From: Coriobacteriia bacterium
Lineage (GTDB): Bacteria > Actinomycetota > Coriobacteriia > WRKU01
Length of the DNA stretch: 64,000 nucleotides
Assembly (NCBI GenBank): GCA_009777935.1
Contig: WRKU01000005.1
Span: 4,102-68,101, forward strand
Reading direction: 5' to 3'
Part shown: piece after piece, positions 24,007-38,521 of the stretch
Position numbering within the stretch: the first letter of the stretch is position 1
Layout: each line of letters starts with the position of its first letter
Notes under the pieces: generated by a model
What the model saw: the letters and a program-made list of their open reading frames with translations, nothing else
What the model was told of the DNA's origin: nothing
Database searches by the model: none
Translations under genes and position numbers: made by a program

Positions 24007-24083
<77 letters not shown>

Positions 24084-24157
24084 ACGCTGAGGTATTAGGA
24101 TAGCACAGACTCTTTTCTTGCAAAATTTTTCTGCAACTTTTCTGCATCGCTCTCTTG

Positions 24158-24168
24158 TGTGTTATACT
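24158..24168 (+). promoter_or_regulatory. Putative extended -10 promoter (TGT-TATACT) for the riboswitch-led operon
   Basis: TGTTATACT lies just upstream of the riboswitch. The -35 is weak. Confidence 0.35.
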
Positions 24169-24171
24169 CGG

Positions 24172-24405
24172 ACCCACAAGAGAGGACATCTCGGTCAAGG
24201 GAAGTCGGGTGTAAGTCCCGTGCGGTACCGCCACTGTGATGCGGCTCAGAACTATCAGGAGCCGCTAAGCCAGAGAACTTGTCGAGAAACGTGTTGCACA
24301 GGCAGCGAGTTACTGTAGGTGCGGCTTGGGGACCGGTGTCAAATGGTTCCCAACTTATGAAGTAGCAAAAACGGGCTGCGTATCTTTCGAGGTGCGCAGT
24401 TTTTT
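24172..24405 (+). promoter_or_regulatory. Cobalamin (adenosylcobalamin-type) riboswitch with terminator expression platform
   Basis: Conserved core GGTCAAGGGAAGTCGGGTGTAAGTCCCGTGCGGTACCGCCACTGT, hairpin GCGGCTC...GAGCCGC and B12 box AAGCCAGAGAAC. This is followed by CTGCG...CGCAG + TTTTTT. Confidence 0.8.
24376..24405 (+). terminator. Candidate riboswitch-controlled intrinsic terminator
   Basis: CTGCG(24376-80)/CGCAG(24395-99) stem followed by T6. The stem is short and the loop long, hence moderate confidence. Confidence 0.45.
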
Positions 24406-24473
24406 GTTGACACGGTCTTCTGCTTGGCGTCAGGTACCCGCTAGGGTACAACGGAAACGACAGGAGGAAGACT

Positions 24474-26705
24474 ATGGAATTCGACTGCAGGAAAAACCGT
24501 CGCAAAAAAACTACGGCACTTATGATTATGCTGGTGTTCTGCATAAGCCTATTGCCCTATGGAGCATGGACCGAAGTGGCCGTTGCGGGTTCGGGCGATG
24601 GTGAAGCCACACTTACCATCGTATTTGGTCTCGGTCTCGACGGATCACCCGACGTAGCGGTCAACAAAACCTATAGCTTTGAGGAAGGTGCCACGATTGA
24701 GGATTTGCTCGATGCAGCGGTTGTCGCCGGCGACCTTACCGGCTACGCACTTGACAGTGGCGGGTTTCCTCACTACTTCACCAAAACAGGAGGCACTACG
24801 CTCCAAAATGCCAGTAATTTTGCTACTTATTGGGCAACCTTTATCGATGGTGGTTATTTTACCGGCTCGGGCAATCTGAGGACAATAAAACTCGTCGATG
24901 GTTCTGCTTATCAGTTTGCTTGGGATAGTTTCCCGACGGCCACCGCGCCCAGCTGGAATTTGCTCGACCCACCCGATATTGATATCTGGGATGTTGTAGG
25001 CGGTGGAGCAGCGGTAGGGCGCGCGACTGCCACAGTCGTCTACGGTATCGACAGCACCGATATGCCCATGTTTGCCGGTCCTGGCCTGCCTATCGTAATC
25101 ACTAACATAAGCTACGAATTCTCTGACGGTGCAACAGTCGCCGACTTCTTTGAGCTACTCGAAGAAGACGGAGAAATCAACAGCTATACGTTTGACAGCA
25201 ACGGATATCTCAGTTCGCTATCGTTTTATGGGGGCATATTCTCTGCCACCAATGCTGCTGATTTTTCGACTTATTGGTCAACGTACGTTAACGGTGATTA
25301 CTTCGGCGGCGGTACCGGGGGTATTGAGGCAACAGAACTTCAGGATGGATACGTCTACCAGTTTGCCTGGGAGAGCTTCCCCACCGCCACTCCCCCTCAA
25401 TGGAACACGATCCCCGCACCTACTCCTGGTGGTGGCAGCGCGCATGGTGGCACGGGTGGTTTACCGGATACGCCACCTGCCTCTCTACCTGGTAGTGCTC
25501 AAGCGACGTTCAACACCTTGCTTGCCAACATCTCGACACGTTTTGCCTATACCGGTGATGACTGGAAAGCACTGAGCATGGCGGCCATCGGCAACGCCGA
25601 TGCTGTTAACCAAAACGCTATCATCGCTAACGCCGTTGCGGCCTATAATGACCCGGATGCCACCAATCTCCAACGCAGTATTCTCGCGGTCACGGCGCTC
25701 GGTATCGATGCTAGGAACGTCGTGAGTGACAACACCAGCTATAATCTCATCGAGGCACTTGCTAACTCAAGTACATCCTTCAGTGGCCCGAATGCACAAA
25801 TGTTTGCGCTACTTGCCTACGCCAGCGGCCCCTATGTGCCATCGGTAACGAGCAATCCCGGAGTTGAAGAACTCATTGACAATATTCTCGCCGCCCAGAA
25901 CACTGACGGTGGTTGGACGTGGTTCGGGAGCACCTCTGATGTCGATATGACTGCGATGGGAATTTTGGCTCTCGAGCCGTATCGCGCGGACGATCCACGC
26001 ATAGAAGAGGCAATTCAGACGGCGCTTGTTACCCTCTATGACATGCAGGCCGAACATGGTGGTTTTGAGTCGATGTGGAATCCCGGCGAGATTGATGTGA
26101 GCTCAACAGCGATGGCCATCATCGCACTCTCGGCCATCGGTGTCGATACGCAGTCATGGGTAGTCGGTGCAGGTGCGCACCTACCCACCTGTCCTCACCG
26201 CGCTCCGGAACATTCGCTCGTCGCTGCACTCGACGCAGCCTTCGAGGCGATGCGCTCGACCATACAGATCTCGGTCGCCGGTGCGAGTACCGGCGCACAG
26301 ACACCACTCAGTGCGCTGCTCTCCCAGGCAAACACCTCACTAACCGGTTTTCTCTTCAACGGTGCGACGAACGATATGGCAACCGAGCAAGGCTTTCTTG
26401 CCCTCGTTTCTTATCAGGGCTTTCTGAACACCGGTCAGCCCTTCAACATCTACACGCAGGCACGTTCGGGTGCGGCAACGTTTCCCATAAACGTCACGAC
26501 CGATACGACCAATACCATCGTTGTCGAGAGCGCGGTGCTTGATGTCGACAGCTCGAACGGCGTGAACCCTGTGACGGGTGACAACCTGCTGCCTCTCATG
26601 ATGGCGCTGCTCGTTCTTGCGATTGGCTCATCGTTTCTGGTAGCGGGCACGGCGCGTCGTACCGCCCTGCACCCTCTCGGACAGAGAGAACACGGAGACA
26701 TCTGA
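24474..26705 (+). CDS. Secreted, probably wall- or membrane-anchored protein: 2x DUF4430-like beta domains + prenyltransferase/terpene-cyclase-like alpha/alpha toroid; putative surface cobalamin-binding protein
   Basis: AGGAGGAAG RBS and signal peptide. Two about 125-aa repeats end in Q(F)AW(D/E)SFPTAT.P.WN. Toroid repeats include QNTDGGWTW, QAEHGGFES and DVSSTAMAIIAL. The C-terminus has NPVTG, a hydrophobic helix and ARR. It is the first gene after a B12 riboswitch. Confidence 0.75.
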   Translation: MEFDCRKNRRKKTTALMIMLVFCISLLPYGAWTEVAVAGSGDGEATLTIVFGLGLDGSPDVAVNKTYSFEEGATIEDLLDAAVVAGDLTGYALDSGGFPHYFTKTGGTTLQNASNFATYWATFIDGGYFTGSGNLRTIKLVDGSAYQFAWDSFPTATAPSWNLLDPPDIDIWDVVGGGAAVGRATATVVYGIDSTDMPMFAGPGLPIVITNISYEFSDGATVADFFELLEEDGEINSYTFDSNGYLSSLSFYGGIFSATNAADFSTYWSTYVNGDYFGGGTGGIEATELQDGYVYQFAWESFPTATPPQWNTIPAPTPGGGSAHGGTGGLPDTPPASLPGSAQATFNTLLANISTRFAYTGDDWKALSMAAIGNADAVNQNAIIANAVAAYNDPDATNLQRSILAVTALGIDARNVVSDNTSYNLIEALANSSTSFSGPNAQMFALLAYASGPYVPSVTSNPGVEELIDNILAAQNTDGGWTWFGSTSDVDMTAMGILALEPYRADDPRIEEAIQTALVTLYDMQAEHGGFESMWNPGEIDVSSTAMAIIALSAIGVDTQSWVVGAGAHLPTCPHRAPEHSLVAALDAAFEAMRSTIQISVAGASTGAQTPLSALLSQANTSLTGFLFNGATNDMATEQGFLALVSYQGFLNTGQPFNIYTQARSGAATFPINVTTDTTNTIVVESAVLDVDSSNGVNPVTGDNLLPLMMALLVLAIGSSFLVAGTARRTALHPLGQREHGDI

Positions 26706-27470: not shown

Positions 27471-28235
27471 ATGATGCTCCTCGGCGAAAAAAAGTGTGTA
27501 CCGTATCTCTTCGATGCCGTTCACCCAACGGTTCTGTTTGGCTCCTTTGCGGCGGTCATCGTCCTCACTATGGCGACGATGAACCTGCTCCTCTTGCTCG
27601 TCTCCTTTGCAGGGGCACTCGCACTGAGCGTATGGGTGCGCGGGTGGCGCGCCACCGGTACGACACTGGTCTGGCAGATTCCGCTCGTCGTACTTTGCGC
27701 TGTCATTAACCCTCTGTTCGCCTCGACCGGATCCATCGAACTCTTTCGTATTGGTACGAAGGCAATATATCTTGAAAGCGTGGTGACAGGTGCGGCGACG
27801 GGGCTTATGCTCGTCTCAATCATGCTGTGGTTCTCTCTTGCGAGCCAGATACTCACCTCAGATAAGATACTAACGATTATCGGAAAACGAATGCCTACCA
27901 TGGGGCTGATAATTTCCATGACGCTGCGTCTCGTCCCCCGGCTCGTCGAGCGCGGCAGGCATATCGACAGTGCGGTGCGGGCTACCACTGTGATAACACC
28001 GCGCACCATCATCGAGCGAATCGCCGCACGGCTACGTATTGTTTCGGTCCTCATGGGATGGAGTATGGAGGACTCGCTTGAGACGGCCGACGCTATGCGC
28101 GCGCGCGGATGGGGCGCTGTACCGTACCGAACGAGCTATCGGCCCTATCGATTTCGTATATTCGATGCGGCAATCGGTATCGCCATACTGGCCATACTCA
28201 TCACACTCGTTGTTCTGATAAGAGGGATATCGTGA
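27471..28235 (+). CDS. ecfT: ECF transporter transmembrane (T) component, CbiQ/EcfT family
   Basis: Polytopic protein with the C-terminal coupling motif (LETADAMRARGW). The start is uncertain because there is no clear RBS. Confidence 0.8.
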   Translation: MMLLGEKKCVPYLFDAVHPTVLFGSFAAVIVLTMATMNLLLLLVSFAGALALSVWVRGWRATGTTLVWQIPLVVLCAVINPLFASTGSIELFRIGTKAIYLESVVTGAATGLMLVSIMLWFSLASQILTSDKILTIIGKRMPTMGLIISMTLRLVPRLVERGRHIDSAVRATTVITPRTIIERIAARLRIVSVLMGWSMEDSLETADAMRARGWGAVPYRTSYRPYRFRIFDAAIGIAILAILITLVVLIRGIS

Positions 28236-28948
28236 GCACATCAAATATCTCGTATACAGCGGCGCCAATCGCACTCCGCTTTGTCGACTTCAGTTTCTCC
28301 TATCCGGAAAACGCTGCATTATTCTCTGATGTTTCGTTTACCCTCGCATCCGGCTCGTTCACCGTCCTGATTGGGGCGACCGGAAGTGGCAAGACGACGC
28401 TTCTGCGCTCGTGCAAGCCAGAACTAGCACCCGCCGGGAACCATACCGGAACAATCGAAGTCTTTGGGCGCGCCTGTGCTGATTTTGATACCGCCACATC
28501 GGCAACGTTGATTGGCTACGTCTCGCAAAGTCCTGAAAACCAAATCGTGTGCGATACCGTATGGGCTGAACTCGCCTTCGGTCTGGAGAATCTTGGTGTC
28601 GCACCCGATGCTATGCGCCGTCGCATCGCTGAAGTGGCATACTTTTTCGGTATCGAATCGTTGATGCATACACCGACGGCTCAACTTTCAGGAGGACAGA
28701 AACAGGTGCTGACGCTCGCCAGTGTGCTTGTGATGCAGCCACGGCTTTTGCTACTCGACGAGCCAACGGCGCAGCTCGATCCTATCGCCGAGAAAAACTT
28801 CCTGCATGCGCTCTTCCGCATCAATCGTGAGCTCAACATTACCATCCTTGTGGCGACTCACTCCCCCGGAGCGATGGCTGACTACGCAACCGGCATGTTA
28901 CGTCTGGAAGGAGGATGCCTTGAGCATGAGCACCTTGATGTCAAATAA
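28232..28948 (+). CDS. ecfA: ECF transporter ATPase component A
   Basis: Walker A GATGSGKTT, signature LSGGQKQ, Walker B LLLLDEPT. The GTG overlaps the ecfT stop (GTGA). Confidence 0.88.
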   Translation: MSTSNISYTAAPIALRFVDFSFSYPENAALFSDVSFTLASGSFTVLIGATGSGKTTLLRSCKPELAPAGNHTGTIEVFGRACADFDTATSATLIGYVSQSPENQIVCDTVWAELAFGLENLGVAPDAMRRRIAEVAYFFGIESLMHTPTAQLSGGQKQVLTLASVLVMQPRLLLLDEPTAQLDPIAEKNFLHALFRINRELNITILVATHSPGAMADYATGMLRLEGGCLEHEHLDVK

Positions 28949-29615
28949 ACGACCATCCTGTGTCGTCTCTTTGCGCGACGTCTGGGTGCGCTATGGCTCC
29001 GATGAGCCTTGGATACTGCGTGGTACCGATCTTGACGTAACACCTGCCACTATTCATGCTATCATCGGTGGAAACGGTTCGGGAAAGTCAACTCTCCTTC
29101 ATGCGATTGCCGGCACACTCAAGACGCAACGAGGCAAGATTGAAAACCGCCTTGCGTCGACACAGGCACTCTTACCACAAAGTCCAAAGGCCTTGTTCGT
29201 GTGCGATACGGTCAGGGAAGAATTGCAAGAATGGCAACGGCGATGTGGTTACCATGACAGCGAAGTCGCTGACATGACGGCACGCTTTAATCTTGGAACA
29301 CTAGGGGAACGTCATCCCTACGATCTGAGCGGAGGCCAGCAGCAAAAACTTGCGCTGGCAAAACTTCTCCTTACGCAACCAACCTTACTCTTGCTCGATG
29401 AGCCCACGAAAGGACTCGATGCCGCCTCCAAAGAAGACCTTGCGCGTACGTTACTGATTCTCCGGGAAGTGAAGGTGACGATGGTTCTTGTCACCCATGA
29501 CCTTCCCTTCGTCTCCACCGTTGCCGACACCGCGACGATGCTCTTTGATGGACAGGCGGTCTGCACAGAGCCAACGGCGGACTTTTTTGCCCATAACATC
29601 TTCTATCGGTTCTGA
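28926..29615 (+). CDS. ECF transporter ATPase component A'
   Basis: Walker A GGNGSGKST, signature LSGGQQQK, Walker B LLLLDEPT. It overlaps the preceding ATPase gene. Confidence 0.88.
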   Translation: MSTLMSNKRPSCVVSLRDVWVRYGSDEPWILRGTDLDVTPATIHAIIGGNGSGKSTLLHAIAGTLKTQRGKIENRLASTQALLPQSPKALFVCDTVREELQEWQRRCGYHDSEVADMTARFNLGTLGERHPYDLSGGQQQKLALAKLLLTQPTLLLLDEPTKGLDAASKEDLARTLLILREVKVTMVLVTHDLPFVSTVADTATMLFDGQAVCTEPTADFFAHNIFYRF

Positions 29616-29618
29616 GGT

Positions 29619-30311
29619 GTGACCGTGAAAAAACTCTTAACGCTCCTTGAGGTTCCTCTGCTCCTCGCCGTGCCGCTCACCCTGATTGTCTGTGCTTTCT
29701 TTCAGGTGACGCAGACGGCGTTGCTCACTCTGCTTGTTACGAGTATCGTGCTTGTATTGTTTTGTACGGGATTTGAGATGAGCCGCCCCCCTTTGCGTCA
29801 GATTATGCCGACGATTGTTCTGGCTGCTCTGGCCGCCGCCGGCCGCATATTGTTCGTGATGGTTCCTAATTTCAAGCCGGTCTCGGCGATATGCATCGTT
29901 GCGGGGGTCGTTTTTGGCCGACGTACAGGCTTTATGGTTGGCGCGTTGGCTGCGCTTATCTCAAACTTTTTCTTCGGACACGGACCCTGGACACCGTGGC
30001 AGATGTATGCGTGGGGCACCGTCGGTTATCTTGCGGGTCTCTTTGCCGAACACGAACTCTTTAAGCACACGGTTGTGCTCTATCTCTATGGATTCGTGTC
30101 GGCGTTCCTCTATGGATTGCTCCTAAATACCTGGTATATCGTTGGGTTCATACATCCGCTCACGTGGCAAAGCGCACTCATTGCTTACGGAGCTTCGTTG
30201 CCGTTCGACCTCTTACAAGGCATCGCAACCGTCATCTTCTTGCTGCTCATCTTTGCCCCTTGGCAACGAAAGCTCAAGCGTATCAAAACAAAATACGAGC
30301 TCATCGCATAG
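29619..30311 (+). CDS. ECF transporter substrate-specific (S) component, candidate cobalamin-specific (CbrT-like by context)
   Basis: About 230-aa, 6-7 TM protein with NFKPV....I.AG..FG...GF.VGAL.ALISNFFFG.GPWTPWQM.AWG. It is the last gene of the riboswitch-led ECF operon. Confidence 0.7.
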   Translation: MTVKKLLTLLEVPLLLAVPLTLIVCAFFQVTQTALLTLLVTSIVLVLFCTGFEMSRPPLRQIMPTIVLAALAAAGRILFVMVPNFKPVSAICIVAGVVFGRRTGFMVGALAALISNFFFGHGPWTPWQMYAWGTVGYLAGLFAEHELFKHTVVLYLYGFVSAFLYGLLLNTWYIVGFIHPLTWQSALIAYGASLPFDLLQGIATVIFLLLIFAPWQRKLKRIKTKYELIA

Positions 30312-30314
30312 AAC

Positions 30315-30980
30315 CTATTTCTTCCGAGATCTGCCTCGCAACGTGCGCAACGTCGGCGTATCGGGTGGTGGCGCCAGCATGAATCTTTTGGCGCGCGTCG
30401 CCAAGGCAGCACCAGTCGGTGTGGTCCACTCCCCGTCCGTAATGCGACTCGCTGATGCTTCCGGAAGATCGAATCTATCGACGATATACTGTGTCGCCGG
30501 AGTCGGCACCGAAAGCTTTCCGTGTGAACAGCGCACCGTGCCGCGTCCGAGCACCAGTGGAGACGCAAACCACTCTCGTGCACCAAGCTCCTCAAGTGCA
30601 GTAAATATCCCCATCACACGCGCCACATTTGCTATGCGGCCAATCTCGTGGAAGTGTATATCAACGATGTTCGTATCGTGTGCGACAGCCTCGGCATCGG
30701 CAATCGCAGAAAAGACGGCATGGGCTTCATAGCGCACGTATTCGCTGTCGGCACACTCATCTAAGATGCGTCGCACTTCACGATACGAACGGGTCATGGC
30801 GCCGGACGAGGTGTGATCAGGGTACTGCTCGATAACCGTTGCGACAAGCGTGTCGTTCACGACCTCGGGATACACCACTCGTAATGCATCGAGGAACTTC
30901 TCACTCGTCAAGCCATTCTCGCAATCAAGCCAGAAGAGTGGCTTGATGCCAACTGCCGTTTCGTCAACGTGGCCAACCAT
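30315..30980 (-). CDS. LarC/DUF111-family N-terminal domain-only protein (degenerate)
   Basis: HFHEIG, SPLVLGRGTVRCSHGKLSVPTPAT and TPTGAAL match the LarC N-domain. The N-terminal SGISGDM motif is replaced (NGLTSEKF) and the C-terminal domain is absent. Confidence 0.6.
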   Translation of the reverse strand: MVGHVDETAVGIKPLFWLDCENGLTSEKFLDALRVVYPEVVNDTLVATVIEQYPDHTSSGAMTRSYREVRRILDECADSEYVRYEAHAVFSAIADAEAVAHDTNIVDIHFHEIGRIANVARVMGIFTALEELGAREWFASPLVLGRGTVRCSHGKLSVPTPATQYIVDRFDLPEASASRITDGEWTTPTGAALATRAKRFMLAPPPDTPTLRTLRGRSRKK

Positions 30981-36811: not shown

Positions 36812-36840
36812 ATTTTAGACATGTTATGTGTTTTTTGCAA
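36812..36840 (-). promoter_or_regulatory. Putative promoter for mihF
   Basis: On the minus strand: TTGCAA (36840-36835), exactly 17 nt, TAAAAT (36817-36812). It overlaps the last codons of the upstream truB-ribF ORF. Confidence 0.5.
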
Positions 36841-38521
36841 TCAACGTGCAACAATCAGTACACAAAGCAGTTTTGCGTGTGCTCGCTACGATGTCGGCAG
36901 CAATGACAGTGGTGAGCATATCCTCATCTGATTCCGCAATATTATCGCGTAGGCGACGCTCAAAAATAACGGTTACTATGGTGCCCTGCAGATCACCGGT
37001 GAAGTCGAGAAGATGTGCCTCAAGGGTGCGTACCGCGGTCGTTGCATTCGTCGGGATGCCAACAAAGATAGCGGCATCATAATGACGAGTGCCCACGATG
37101 ACCTGCCCGGCATAGACGCCATCGTCGAGCACCGACAGCGTAGGGGTGTCGGTAACGTTAATGGTAGGACGCCCATGTGCGGCGCCGATGCCACGGCTCT
37201 TCGTCACGACACCAGAGAGTGCGAAGGGTCTGCCAAGTAACGTGGCCGCCCCCTCAACATCGCCGTCACCGAGAAGGCGACGTATACGAGTCGAGGCAAT
37301 TGGTTCGGCGTCTCCGTCCGTCATCGCTTCGACAATCTGCACGCGTGTTCCACCCGCGTCATCTGCTTCATCGAGAATCTCAGCGAGTTTTGTTGGGGTT
37401 CCCTGTGCGCCGATACCAAATCGAAAGTTCTCACCGACAAAGACTCGCAGAGGGTTAACGCGTGTCAGGAGTTCTTTGCGCACAAACTCCTCGGGTTCCA
37501 TCTGTGCAAGTTCTGAGGTAAACGGCACGACGAGCACCTCATCGATACCGTATTCCTTTGCGGTGGCGATGCGATCTTCGCGTGTCATAAGTGGCTGAGG
37601 CGCGCGCGTCGGGCTCATCACTACCTCAGGAAACGGGTCAAACGTCATCATAACCGCCGCACGATCGTTTGCGCGCGCGTCCTCAACACACCGTCGTAGG
37701 ACTTCCTGATGTCCCCTATGACAGCCATCGAAGACGCCGATTGCAACGCTTGCCGGCATACGTCGTCTCAACGGCCCGTATGATATAAAGTAGTCGGCAA
37801 GCTCCCAGGGGCGACGTACTGTTTCCTCCAGCGCCTCAAGCGTGACAGCGTCTTCAACCGCAAACTCCCCACAGCGCATCCTCCGTAACGCACTCAGATG
37901 TGCGCCACATCCCAGCCGTGTACCGAGATCACGCGCGATGGCCCGGATATACGTTCCCTTTGAAACGGTCAGCTCGATATCCCAGCTTTGGGTAGCGGTA
38001 TCGATAGCGAGAAGCGTTGCGTCTTCGATAACGATACGGCGCGGCTCGAGCTTAAGTGGGTGCCCTTTACGCGCCTCACGGTACGCCTTTTTTCCACCTT
38101 GTTTGATGGCGCTGTACGCCGGCGGCACCTGCTCGTGAGCGCCCACCAGCCCTGCGATAATTGTCCGCGCATACGCCTCATCGGAAACCTGCGCGACCCA
38201 CGCATCTTCGACGGCCGGTGCCGTCTCGATGACTGCACCTTCGGCATCGTCGGTATCGGTCGTTACGCCAAACGTAATAGTTGCTCGATAGGTCTTTTGT
38301 GTCGCCGTCAACTCATCGCTGTATCCGGCAGCCTTACCGACCATCATAACGAGGAGGCCGGTCGCCATCGGGTCGAGGGTACCGGCATGTCCGATACGTT
38401 TCTCACCGGTCAGCCAGCGAAGCCGATTGACGACATCATGGCTCGTTATCCCCGCCGGCTTATCGACGAGCACGATTCCCGTAAGCCCACTCGCGCCCCG
38501 GGCATACCGCGGTGGCGACAC
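36824..38521 (-). CDS. Fusion protein: tRNA pseudouridine(55) synthase TruB (N-terminal) + riboflavin kinase/FAD synthetase RibF (C-terminal)
   Basis: Single uninterrupted 565-aa ORF. TruB motifs: G...VDKP.G.TSHD, GHAGTLDP.ATGLL, KGTYIR. RibF motifs: GVFDG.HRGHQ, NFRFG, the S.RIR-type motif, GRP....G.V..G...G. Confidence 0.85.
   Translation of the reverse strand: MSPPRYARGASGLTGIVLVDKPAGITSHDVVNRLRWLTGEKRIGHAGTLDPMATGLLVMMVGKAAGYSDELTATQKTYRATITFGVTTDTDDAEGAVIETAPAVEDAWVAQVSDEAYARTIIAGLVGAHEQVPPAYSAIKQGGKKAYREARKGHPLKLEPRRIVIEDATLLAIDTATQSWDIELTVSKGTYIRAIARDLGTRLGCGAHLSALRRMRCGEFAVEDAVTLEALEETVRRPWELADYFISYGPLRRRMPASVAIGVFDGCHRGHQEVLRRCVEDARANDRAAVMMTFDPFPEVVMSPTRAPQPLMTREDRIATAKEYGIDEVLVVPFTSELAQMEPEEFVRKELLTRVNPLRVFVGENFRFGIGAQGTPTKLAEILDEADDAGGTRVQIVEAMTDGDAEPIASTRIRRLLGDGDVEGAATLLGRPFALSGVVTKSRGIGAAHGRPTINVTDTPTLSVLDDGVYAGQVIVGTRHYDAAIFVGIPTNATTAVRTLEAHLLDFTGDLQGTIVTVIFERRLRDNIAESDEDMLTTVIAADIVASTRKTALCTDCCTLIAKNT

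Follow-up and report, generated by a model that had tools for sequence, protein, structure and literature searches.

What is the function of a bacterial surface protein that is publicly named a terpene cyclase and is built from parts resembling the vitamin B12 carriers of animals? The question is raised by a gene for a 743-amino acid (aa) protein in a Coriobacteriia bacterium (Actinomycetota; GTDB lineage WRKU01; assembly GCA_009777935.1). The gene lies at positions 24,474 to 26,705 of a stretch of 64,000 nucleotides of contig WRKU01000005.1 (positions 4,102 to 68,101, forward strand), which in its full length is termed “the window” below. The protein is identical in sequence to P0001, a protein from a Coriobacteriia metagenome-assembled genome that carries the name “terpene cyclase/mutase family protein”. 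An original prediction, made from the DNA letters, read it instead as an extracellular corrinoid trap, which combines the two halves of transcobalamin (TC) and intrinsic factor (IF) in reversed order and with the beta half duplicated. In the following we outline the genomic context, the architecture and the fold of the protein, and we conclude that it is probably an extracellular corrinoid-binding accessory of an energy-coupling factor (ECF) importer of the CbrT type.

The context of the gene most likely settles its function as vitamin B12 capture. The gene follows an adenosylcobalamin (AdoCbl) riboswitch and opens a series of six tightly packed genes on one strand (Table 1), with a Shine-Dalgarno sequence (GGAGGA, at approximately 24463) ahead of its start codon. 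A terminator-like hairpin downstream of the aptamer is the probable expression platform of the riboswitch, a function assigned from the sequence. The five genes that follow code for a membrane-tethered DUF4430 protein, a divergent EcfT-type transmembrane component, two ECF ATPases and an S-component. Around five homologues from different assemblies (loci L001 and L003 to L006) the gene order is identical, and in all six loci the gene of the 743-aa family is the first cistron after the riboswitch. The cobalamin riboswitch reaches the gathering score upstream of the homologues in L001, L003, L004 and L005, and a partial, sub-threshold match (34.3 bits) is found in L006. The remainder of the window is housekeeping chromosome, in which no corrinoid biosynthesis genes were found.

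The S-component of the operon is related to CbrT. Its best relative in the PDB is 6fnp chain A (E 7.6e-10, 167 residues aligned), and structure 6FNP is the vitamin B12 transporter ECF-CbrT (PMC5997447). We infer from its length (182 aa) and its S-component Pfam matches that chain A is CbrT itself. CbrT was experimentally shown to transport cobalamin and cobinamide (PMC5997447). The corrinoid-trap reading is favoured because the AdoCbl riboswitch and the ECF-CbrT-type operon occur together and are conserved in the homologue loci; along with the fold comparisons described below, these findings lend support to the original prediction, which had missed the upstream riboswitch, the downstream ECF operon and the C-terminal sorting signal of the protein.

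From the N- to the C-terminus, the 743-aa protein comprises a signal peptide, beta module 1, beta module 2, a Gly/Pro-rich linker, an alpha/alpha toroid, a short stalk and a sorting signal. The whole architecture is kept across 14 homologues, which are 33-51% identical to the protein and were aligned with it (15 members in all). AlphaFold2 (AF2) models are confident within the domains, with a mean pLDDT of 79 for the full length and of 88 for aa 42-668. The original prediction had placed both transcobalamin-like halves in one secreted chain in beta-beta-alpha order, and the alignment, the AF2 model and structural searches with Foldseek agree with this. The reading frame and all the motifs quoted for it are likewise in place, namely the linker as well as QNTDGGWTW (aa 475-483), QAEHGGFES (aa 525-533), DVDMTAMGILAL (aa 489-500) and DVSSTAMAIIAL (aa 541-552).

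An internal duplication gave rise to the two N-terminal modules, which share 38% identity in a BLASTP comparison (E 2e-28) and both retain the identical set of conserved motifs. Across the family alignment, the identity between both modules within one protein ranges from 29% to 88% (e.g., P0017, P0011, P0018 and P0012), and in several lineages it exceeds that of orthologous modules (mean 40-45%). This likeness of modules within a protein suggests gene conversion or repeated independent duplication.

The identity of the modules is settled by structure, and on the basis of the AF2 models they have the SLBB/transcobalamin-beta fold. The beta-module regions are predicted with a pLDDT of 85-97, and Foldseek aligns them with the isolated human transcobalamin beta domain (5np4/5no0; TMt 0.66, probability 1.00) and with a bacterial DUF4430 structure from Ruminococcus gnavus (3u7z; TMt 0.61). 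According to its structure description, 5np4 is an isolated TC beta domain solved with bound cyanocobalamin. The sequence support for the label “DUF4430-like”, which the original prediction had attached to both modules, is weak. Pfam yields no DUF4430 match on the whole protein or on module 1 alone, and module 2, taken by itself, scores 14.7 bits (E 0.044), which is under the cutoff of 23.8; 6 of the 15 family members match DUF4430 at E<=1 (best E 4.8e-4). By hhalign, the module profile aligns with the bona fide DUF4430 domain of the neighboring gene product in a collinear, landmark-matching manner over 92 columns (E 0.01, probability 4%), which suggests homology, short of proof. The claim of two such modules consequently stands as to duplication and fold, and less so as to sequence. 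The Pfam family Cobalamin_bind (PF01122) does not match the 743-aa protein at E<=10.

The C-terminal half forms a single toroid domain of about 290 core residues. With the first AF2 model, the top Foldseek match of the toroid is transcobalamin (4zrp_B, E 8.3e-5), and the same chain is found with the second model (E 2.4e-4). The alpha chain of IF (2pmv_B) superposes with a TMt of 0.58, and RabGGTase-beta is matched as well; the second Foldseek run left the ranking of TC versus prenyltransferases no sharper. Judged by models and sequence profiles, the toroid appears placeable at the superfamily or fold level only. The more specific designation as “TC-alpha” by sequence was dropped, as the profile found terpene cyclases rather than TC or IF. 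The alpha half postulated by the original prediction is thus confirmed as a fold shared with TC and IF, and not as one specific to them. A loop insertion (aa 565-609) is specific to the 743-aa protein; the 14 homologues have 0-20 residues at this site. The sole Cys of the mature toroid, Cys573, falls inside this insertion.

A number of results weigh against the assignment of the protein as a corrinoid binder. At the level of sequence, the modules remain under the Pfam DUF4430 cutoff, and a 30-sequence module profile does not reach TC or IF among all PDB chains, the best match being the hypothetical protein 4ghb (E 0.036). The family profile of the toroid is nearest to squalene-hopene cyclase (SHC) and class II terpene synthases in the PDB (E 3.6e-16) and finds no TC or IF chain at E<=10. 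TC and IF are reached by Foldseek, and not by the sequence profiles of either the modules or the toroid. At the level of structure, prenyltransferase beta subunits (TMt 0.46-0.54) are about as good a fit to the toroid as TC/IF (TMt 0.43-0.58). The AF2 models show no confident packing between the domains, with a pTM of 0.49 for the full length and of 0.56 for a trimmed construct with a deeper alignment, and Foldseek alignments are sequential and cannot span a permuted beta/alpha pair. A crude scan of the 64-kb window gave no convincing sortase gene. Finally, the searched literature contains no direct B12-binding evidence for any bacterial SLBB/toroid protein, and the single experimental study of a related system that was found there argues that a homologous split system of Lactobacillus sakei mediates the uptake of heme, not B12 (bioRxiv 10.1101/864751).

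The latter work raises the alternative that the locus described here also scavenges heme or another tetrapyrrole for import by the ECF module, as proposed for L. sakei Lsa1836-1840. Both operons code for TC-alpha-like and TC-beta-like parts along with an ECF module, and for L. sakei docking and uptake assays pointed to heme (bioRxiv 10.1101/864751). Moreover, ECF-type heme transporters exist (PMC7299338). These parallels are opposed by the cobalamin-riboswitch leader, which is present in all six loci (sub-threshold in L006), and by the S-component, whose best solved relative is CbrT, for which hemin is no competitor (PMC5997447). As pointed out in the L. sakei study itself, the S-component of that system is devoid of the residues by which CbrT binds cobalamin (bioRxiv 10.1101/864751). 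We therefore regard heme as an unlikely substrate of the Coriobacteriia system.

The profile match of the toroid is one argument for another alternative, implied by the public annotation, according to which the toroid is an active enzyme of the terpene cyclase or prenyltransferase type and the N-terminal modules are accessory. The Pfam family SQHop_cyclase_N (PF13249) matches the toroid just above the cutoff (26.3 versus 26.2 bits), and class II terpene synthases top the Foldseek list by E-value when the second model is used. However, they superpose badly (RMSD, i.e., root-mean-square deviation, of about 17 A, TMt 0.25), the SHC profile match is confined to repeat segments, and the NCBIfam squalene cyclase models remain far under their cutoff on the 743-aa protein (19 versus 323 bits). 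The catalytic stretch D374-V-D376-D377-T-A of SHC aligns with S-D489-V-D491-M492-T-A, the family form of which is S-D-x-D-M-T-A-M. D489 and D491, which occupy two of the Asp positions of the DxDD motif, are invariant in the family, whereas the third Asp is replaced by Met in 14 of 15 members and by Val in one, such that an intact DxDD motif, one of the features that would have contradicted the original prediction, is not found. Since the SDxDMTAM signature also aligns with several non-catalytic SHC repeats, it appears to be a repeat motif.

Further features of the protein argue against catalysis. No Cys or His is invariant across the 15-member alignment, and this absence would leave neither a Zn site of the prenyltransferase type nor a thioester possible. 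Class II cyclases use a beta-gamma pair of toroids, and the 743-aa protein has a single one. Furthermore, a secreted and wall-anchored protein would be distant from isoprenoid diphosphate pools, and the operon is B12-regulated and devoted to transport. The toroid is accordingly predicted not to be an enzyme, and we consider catalytic activity very improbable. The public name is probably a misannotation. For P0001 it rests on a Pfam score 0.1 bit over the cutoff; most homologues are unnamed or termed “hypothetical”. The annotation probably propagates over thousands of relatives, and the present analysis corrects it.

A third alternative holds that the 743-aa protein is an adhesin, a protease trap akin to the TED domain of alpha-2-macroglobulin or a binder of wall polysaccharides, that its co-transcription with transporter genes is incidental and that the tethered DUF4430 protein is the sole B12 binder. 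In fact, the toroid profile matches alpha-2-macroglobulin TED domains (E ~2e-5), relatives of the protein are found among very large surface proteins of many domains, including SLH, FIVAR, Big_2 and ChW, and partner domains may serve as tethers to polysaccharide, as noted by Burroughs et al. (PMC1796856). The thioester/TED variant was ruled out, as the CGEQ motif is impossible where no Cys is conserved. An incidental role is difficult to reconcile with the position of the gene as first cistron behind the riboswitch in all six loci, and the pairing of beta module and toroid is persistent across the family, as it is in transcobalamin. This alternative seems to us about as improbable as a role in heme uptake, and corrinoid binding, which is proposed here on the basis of context, folds and analogy, is the preferred function of the protein.

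The protein is probably exposed at the cell surface, as both of its ends suggest. The N-terminus comprises a basic stretch (RKNRRKK) and a hydrophobic helix (aa 5-25 in the AF2 model), and a cleavage context of the form LLPxxAWA is conserved among the homologues; as the original prediction held, these features are indicative of a signal peptide. The core of the signal peptide harbors a conserved Cys, for which a lipoprotein reading was rejected: a lipoprotein would call for G, A or S at position -1, where these proteins have L, V or I, and the Cys is followed by the likely AWA site. The C-terminus (aa 698-731) resembles an LPxTG-type sortase sorting signal, through which the protein is presumably anchored. 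In the homologues the motif takes the form (L/I/V/M)(P/A)xTG(D/E) and precedes a transmembrane (TM) segment and RR; its Thr (T701) is shared by all family members. Pfam Gram_pos_anchor weakly matches 2 of the 15 family members.

The second gene of the operon codes for another candidate binder. Its product is arranged as a type II protein, in which a TM anchor at the N-terminus is connected by a low-complexity tether (about 100 aa, rich in acidic residues, Ser and Gly) to a C-terminal DUF4430 domain. This layout recurs in the six loci, where the proteins are 247-395 aa long and the tethers vary greatly in length and composition, which fits a spacer whose length may be tuned to the thickness of the wall. 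Unlike the tether, the DUF4430 domain is 53-71% identical between loci.

Taken together, the components suggest the following course of events. At low intracellular AdoCbl, the riboswitch would permit read-through of the leader terminator, and all six genes would be expressed. The 743-aa protein would be exported via the Sec pathway and then linked by a sortase to peptidoglycan through its (L/N)(P/A)xTG signal, thus displaying on the wall two TC-beta-type modules and a toroid, which are joined by the flexible Gly/Pro linker. By analogy with transcobalamin, the toroid and one of the beta modules may hold the corrinoid between them. For its passage through the wall to CbrT there are two candidate carriers, namely the other beta module and the DUF4430 domain encoded by the following gene, which is held on a membrane-rooted tether of 100-250 aa. 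EcfT together with EcfA and EcfA' would drive the import. Solitary beta modules are plausible intermediate carriers, because isolated TC beta domains bind cobalamin, as described for 5np4.

In its most explicit form, this proposal amounts to a three-station corrinoid relay across the monoderm wall, in which the ligand leaves the wall-anchored clamp for the spare beta module and reaches CbrT by way of the tethered DUF4430 domain. The beta module that closes on the toroid would capture the corrinoid with transcobalamin-like affinity, and the ligand would be handed on in a bucket brigade akin to Isd or BtuJ/H/G. We put the relay forward tentatively, as a possible but rather doubtful elaboration of the corrinoid-binding role. 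If true, Gram-positive surface competition for B12 would for the first time be explained in mechanistic terms, and the relay would provide a bacterial model for the ancestor of the animal B12 carriers.

Table 1. Features of the riboswitch operon and of the 743-aa protein (positions in the window)
Feature	Position	Strand	Basis
AdoCbl (cobalamin) riboswitch aptamer, 5' leader of the operon	24176..24327	+	Rfam RF01482, 54.2 bits (gathering score 50), full model 1-149
Intrinsic-terminator-like hairpin and T-run	24373..24408	+	Consensus scan; 13-pair stem, then TTTTTTGTTG, between aptamer and start codon
Gene for the 743-aa surface protein (beta-beta-alpha, putative sortase-type anchor)	24474..26705	+	Open reading frame and translation
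Predicted signal peptide (aa 1 to ~38; cleavage position approximate)	24474..24587	+	RKNRRKK, hydrophobic helix, AWA context
Beta module 1, SLBB/transcobalamin-beta-like (aa 44-166)	24603..24971	+	Repeat with module 2; pLDDT 85-93; Foldseek 5np4/5no0, 3u7z
Beta module 2, SLBB/transcobalamin-beta-like (aa 183-314)	25020..25415	+	As module 1; in addition sub-cutoff Pfam DUF4430
Gly/Pro-rich flexible linker (aa 314-340), PAPTPGGGSAHGGTGGLPDTPPASLPG	25413..25493	+	Sequence; pLDDT <50 at aa 324-333; variable in homologues
Single alpha/alpha toroid, SDxDMTAM replacing DxDD (aa 340-668)	25491..26477	+	Pfam, PDB profile, Foldseek; pLDDT mostly >90
45-aa insertion in a surface loop of the toroid (aa 565-609)	26166..26300	+	Alignment; pLDDT <50
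Putative cell-wall sorting signal: NPVTGD, hydrophobic helix, RR tail	26565..26702	+	Homologue alignment; helix aa 706-731 (AF2 model)
Membrane-tethered DUF4430 protein, 250 aa	26705..27457	+	Pfam PF14478, E 1.2e-12, aa 176-243
EcfT-type transmembrane component, divergent	27471..28235	+	Six-locus family profile versus EcfT structures 5d3m_D/6fnp, E 3.4e-8
EcfA ATPase	28232..28948	+	Pfam ABC_tran E 4e-24; NCBIfam ECF_ATPase_1 E 9.7e-48, under equivalog cutoff
EcfA' ATPase	28926..29615	+	Pfam ABC_tran E 6.5e-26; NCBIfam ECF_ATPase_2 E 3.1e-32, under equivalog cutoff
CbrT-like ECF S-component	29619..30311	+	Pfam ECF-ribofla_trS E 2.6e-12, DUF6580; PDB 6fnp chain A

The transport genes of the operon are in part divergent. 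The single EcfT sequence finds only CbiQ in Pfam (E 0.42), and the profile match to EcfT structures spans profile positions 17-245 of 307 and chain residues 19-261 of 265. The homologue alignment and the sequence suggest that EcfA starts with a GTG, which overlaps the ecfT stop codon; the ATG of EcfA' is preceded by GGAAGGAGGA. Both ECF ATPases are encoded by separate, overlapping genes in the window and by a fused gene (482-525 aa) in L001, L003, L004, L005 and L006. A frameshift-split fused ecfAA' gene was considered and rejected, as the second ATPase has its own Shine-Dalgarno sequence and ATG.

The surroundings of the operon differ between loci. A gene pair (HI0933-like and FAD-dependent DUF8436) lies just upstream of the riboswitch operon in L001 (3979-7112), L003 (3823-6692) and L005 (2511-5614), at a site where the window carries an AMP-binding (LuxE-like) gene and a tRNA. 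The differing upstream neighbors imply that the operon moves as a unit between contexts. In the window, a tRNA-Pro(GGG) gene (24007-24083, minus strand) adjoins the riboswitch leader upstream on the opposite strand, and a 149-aa antisense open reading frame (ORF; 24095-24544, minus strand), which has no Pfam match and is probably spurious, overlaps the riboswitch and the start of the gene. A LarC-like “Ni_insertion” ORF of 221 aa (30315-30980, minus strand) lies tail to tail with the last gene of the ECF operon; as it covers profile positions 53-204 of 375 only, it appears to be a truncated or split gene. Farther away, a 565-aa ORF (36824-38521, minus strand) comprises TruB_N and TruB_C_2, followed by FAD_syn and Flavokinase, and is an apparent truB-ribF fusion or a read-through of two adjacent genes.

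How unusual is the arrangement? In an exhaustive profile search, the number of related representative clusters amounts to 9,745 at E<=1e-3 and to 2,140 at E<=1e-30. Beta module and toroid co-occur in most of 168 retrieved relatives, in many orders and copy numbers: alpha-beta-alpha is found in 47, beta-beta-alpha in 35, beta-alpha in 21, alpha only in 17 and beta-alpha-beta-alpha in 8, besides others. These proteins reach lengths of up to 3.5 kaa (thousand aa), and beta-to-alpha adjacencies (145) are counted along with alpha-to-beta ones (85). A Pfam-significant DUF4430 domain adjoins the toroid in P0060 and P0056, and such members are SLH- or FIVAR-anchored. Several toroids interleaved with DUF4430 domains and SLH/FIVAR anchors are found in giant surface proteins of 1.1-3.5 kaa (P0056, P0060-P0062, P0070 and similar); the 3,494-aa P0062, for instance, is arranged as alpha-beta-alpha-beta. 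These giants may be multivalent corrinoid binders. Judged by these sequences, reversed domain order and beta duplication are ordinary among bacteria, and the novelty implied by the original prediction was overstated.

Compared with class II terpene cyclases, SHC and prenyltransferase beta subunits, the toroid described here shares the alpha/alpha-toroid fold and repeats of the QW/PFTB type (DGGW..., DxDxTA...). The 743-aa protein differs from these enzymes in its single toroid, the DxDM motif, the absence of Zn ligands, its predicted extracellular location and its transport operon. With transcobalamin, intrinsic factor and haptocorrin it has in common an alpha6/alpha6 toroid, a beta-grasp (SLBB) domain and a flexible linker. 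In the animal carriers, however, the alpha domain is N-terminal and the beta domain C-terminal, whereas the bacterial chain runs beta-beta-alpha with the beta domain duplicated, and it has no sequence-level match to Cobalamin_bind or to TC/IF chains. Moreover, the animal proteins are soluble and deliver their ligand to CD320 or cubilin, whereas the 743-aa protein is predicted to be wall-anchored and is proposed to deliver to an ECF transporter.

The hand-inward logic of such a delivery is comparable to the sortase-anchored Isd/NEAT heme relay of Gram-positive bacteria. It is also like that of the BtuJ/BtuH/BtuK/BtuG to BtuB relay of Bacteroides thetaiotaomicron, the surface binders of which are encoded in a B12-riboswitch operon (PMC13616437). 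Yet, the Bacteroides proteins adopt unrelated folds (beta-propeller, jellyroll and BtuH domains) and are lipoprotein-anchored at an outer membrane, and the relay at the Coriobacteriia locus is a conjecture. ECF-CbrT of Lactobacillus delbrueckii (6FNP; Santos et al. 2018, PMC5997447) shares a homologous S-component, EcfT and two ATPases with the operon described here; it works without an extracellular binding protein, whereas the present operon adds two extracytoplasmic binder candidates and features a divergent EcfT. The operon L. sakei Lsa1836-1840 likewise codes for a toroid protein and a beta protein in addition to the S, T and A components of an ECF-like system (bioRxiv 10.1101/864751). 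There, the alpha and beta parts are separate polypeptides and assigned to heme; here, they are fused in beta-beta-alpha order, supplemented by an extra beta protein and preceded by a cobalamin riboswitch.

The closest precedent is the work of Burroughs, Balaji, Iyer and Aravind (2007; Biol Direct 2:4), who established the SLBB superfamily and, within it, a transcobalamin-like clade (PMC1796856). The authors described bacterial SLBB proteins with signal peptides and Gram-positive anchors, in which a toroid is fused on either side of the SLBB domain, as well as operons in which CbiO/CbiQ-like genes accompany a second paralogue of the SLBB protein, and predicted a role in B12 scavenging; they also suggested that animals acquired their carrier from Gram-positive bacteria (PMC1796856). 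The present locus fits this description point by point, as to secretion, anchor, C-terminal toroid, second SLBB protein and transporter genes. It differs in that the SLBB domain is tandemly duplicated, that the modules are divergent and stay under the Pfam DUF4430 cutoff, and that the locus belongs to an actinobacterium of the Coriobacteriia, and not to a low-GC Gram-positive bacterium. Furthermore, the riboswitch, a term that does not occur in the 2007 paper, and the CbrT-type S-component make the link to corrinoids explicit. The 743-aa protein thus belongs to a common type that was predicted in 2007; it is no new kind of system and will not surprise the specialist. A 2026 review calls Gram-positive extracellular cobamide capture “entirely uncharacterized” (PMC13616437), and for the prediction of 2007 the locus is an unusually clean case, which combines a riboswitch, a putatively anchored beta-beta-alpha protein, a tethered beta protein and a full ECF-CbrT module in one operon.

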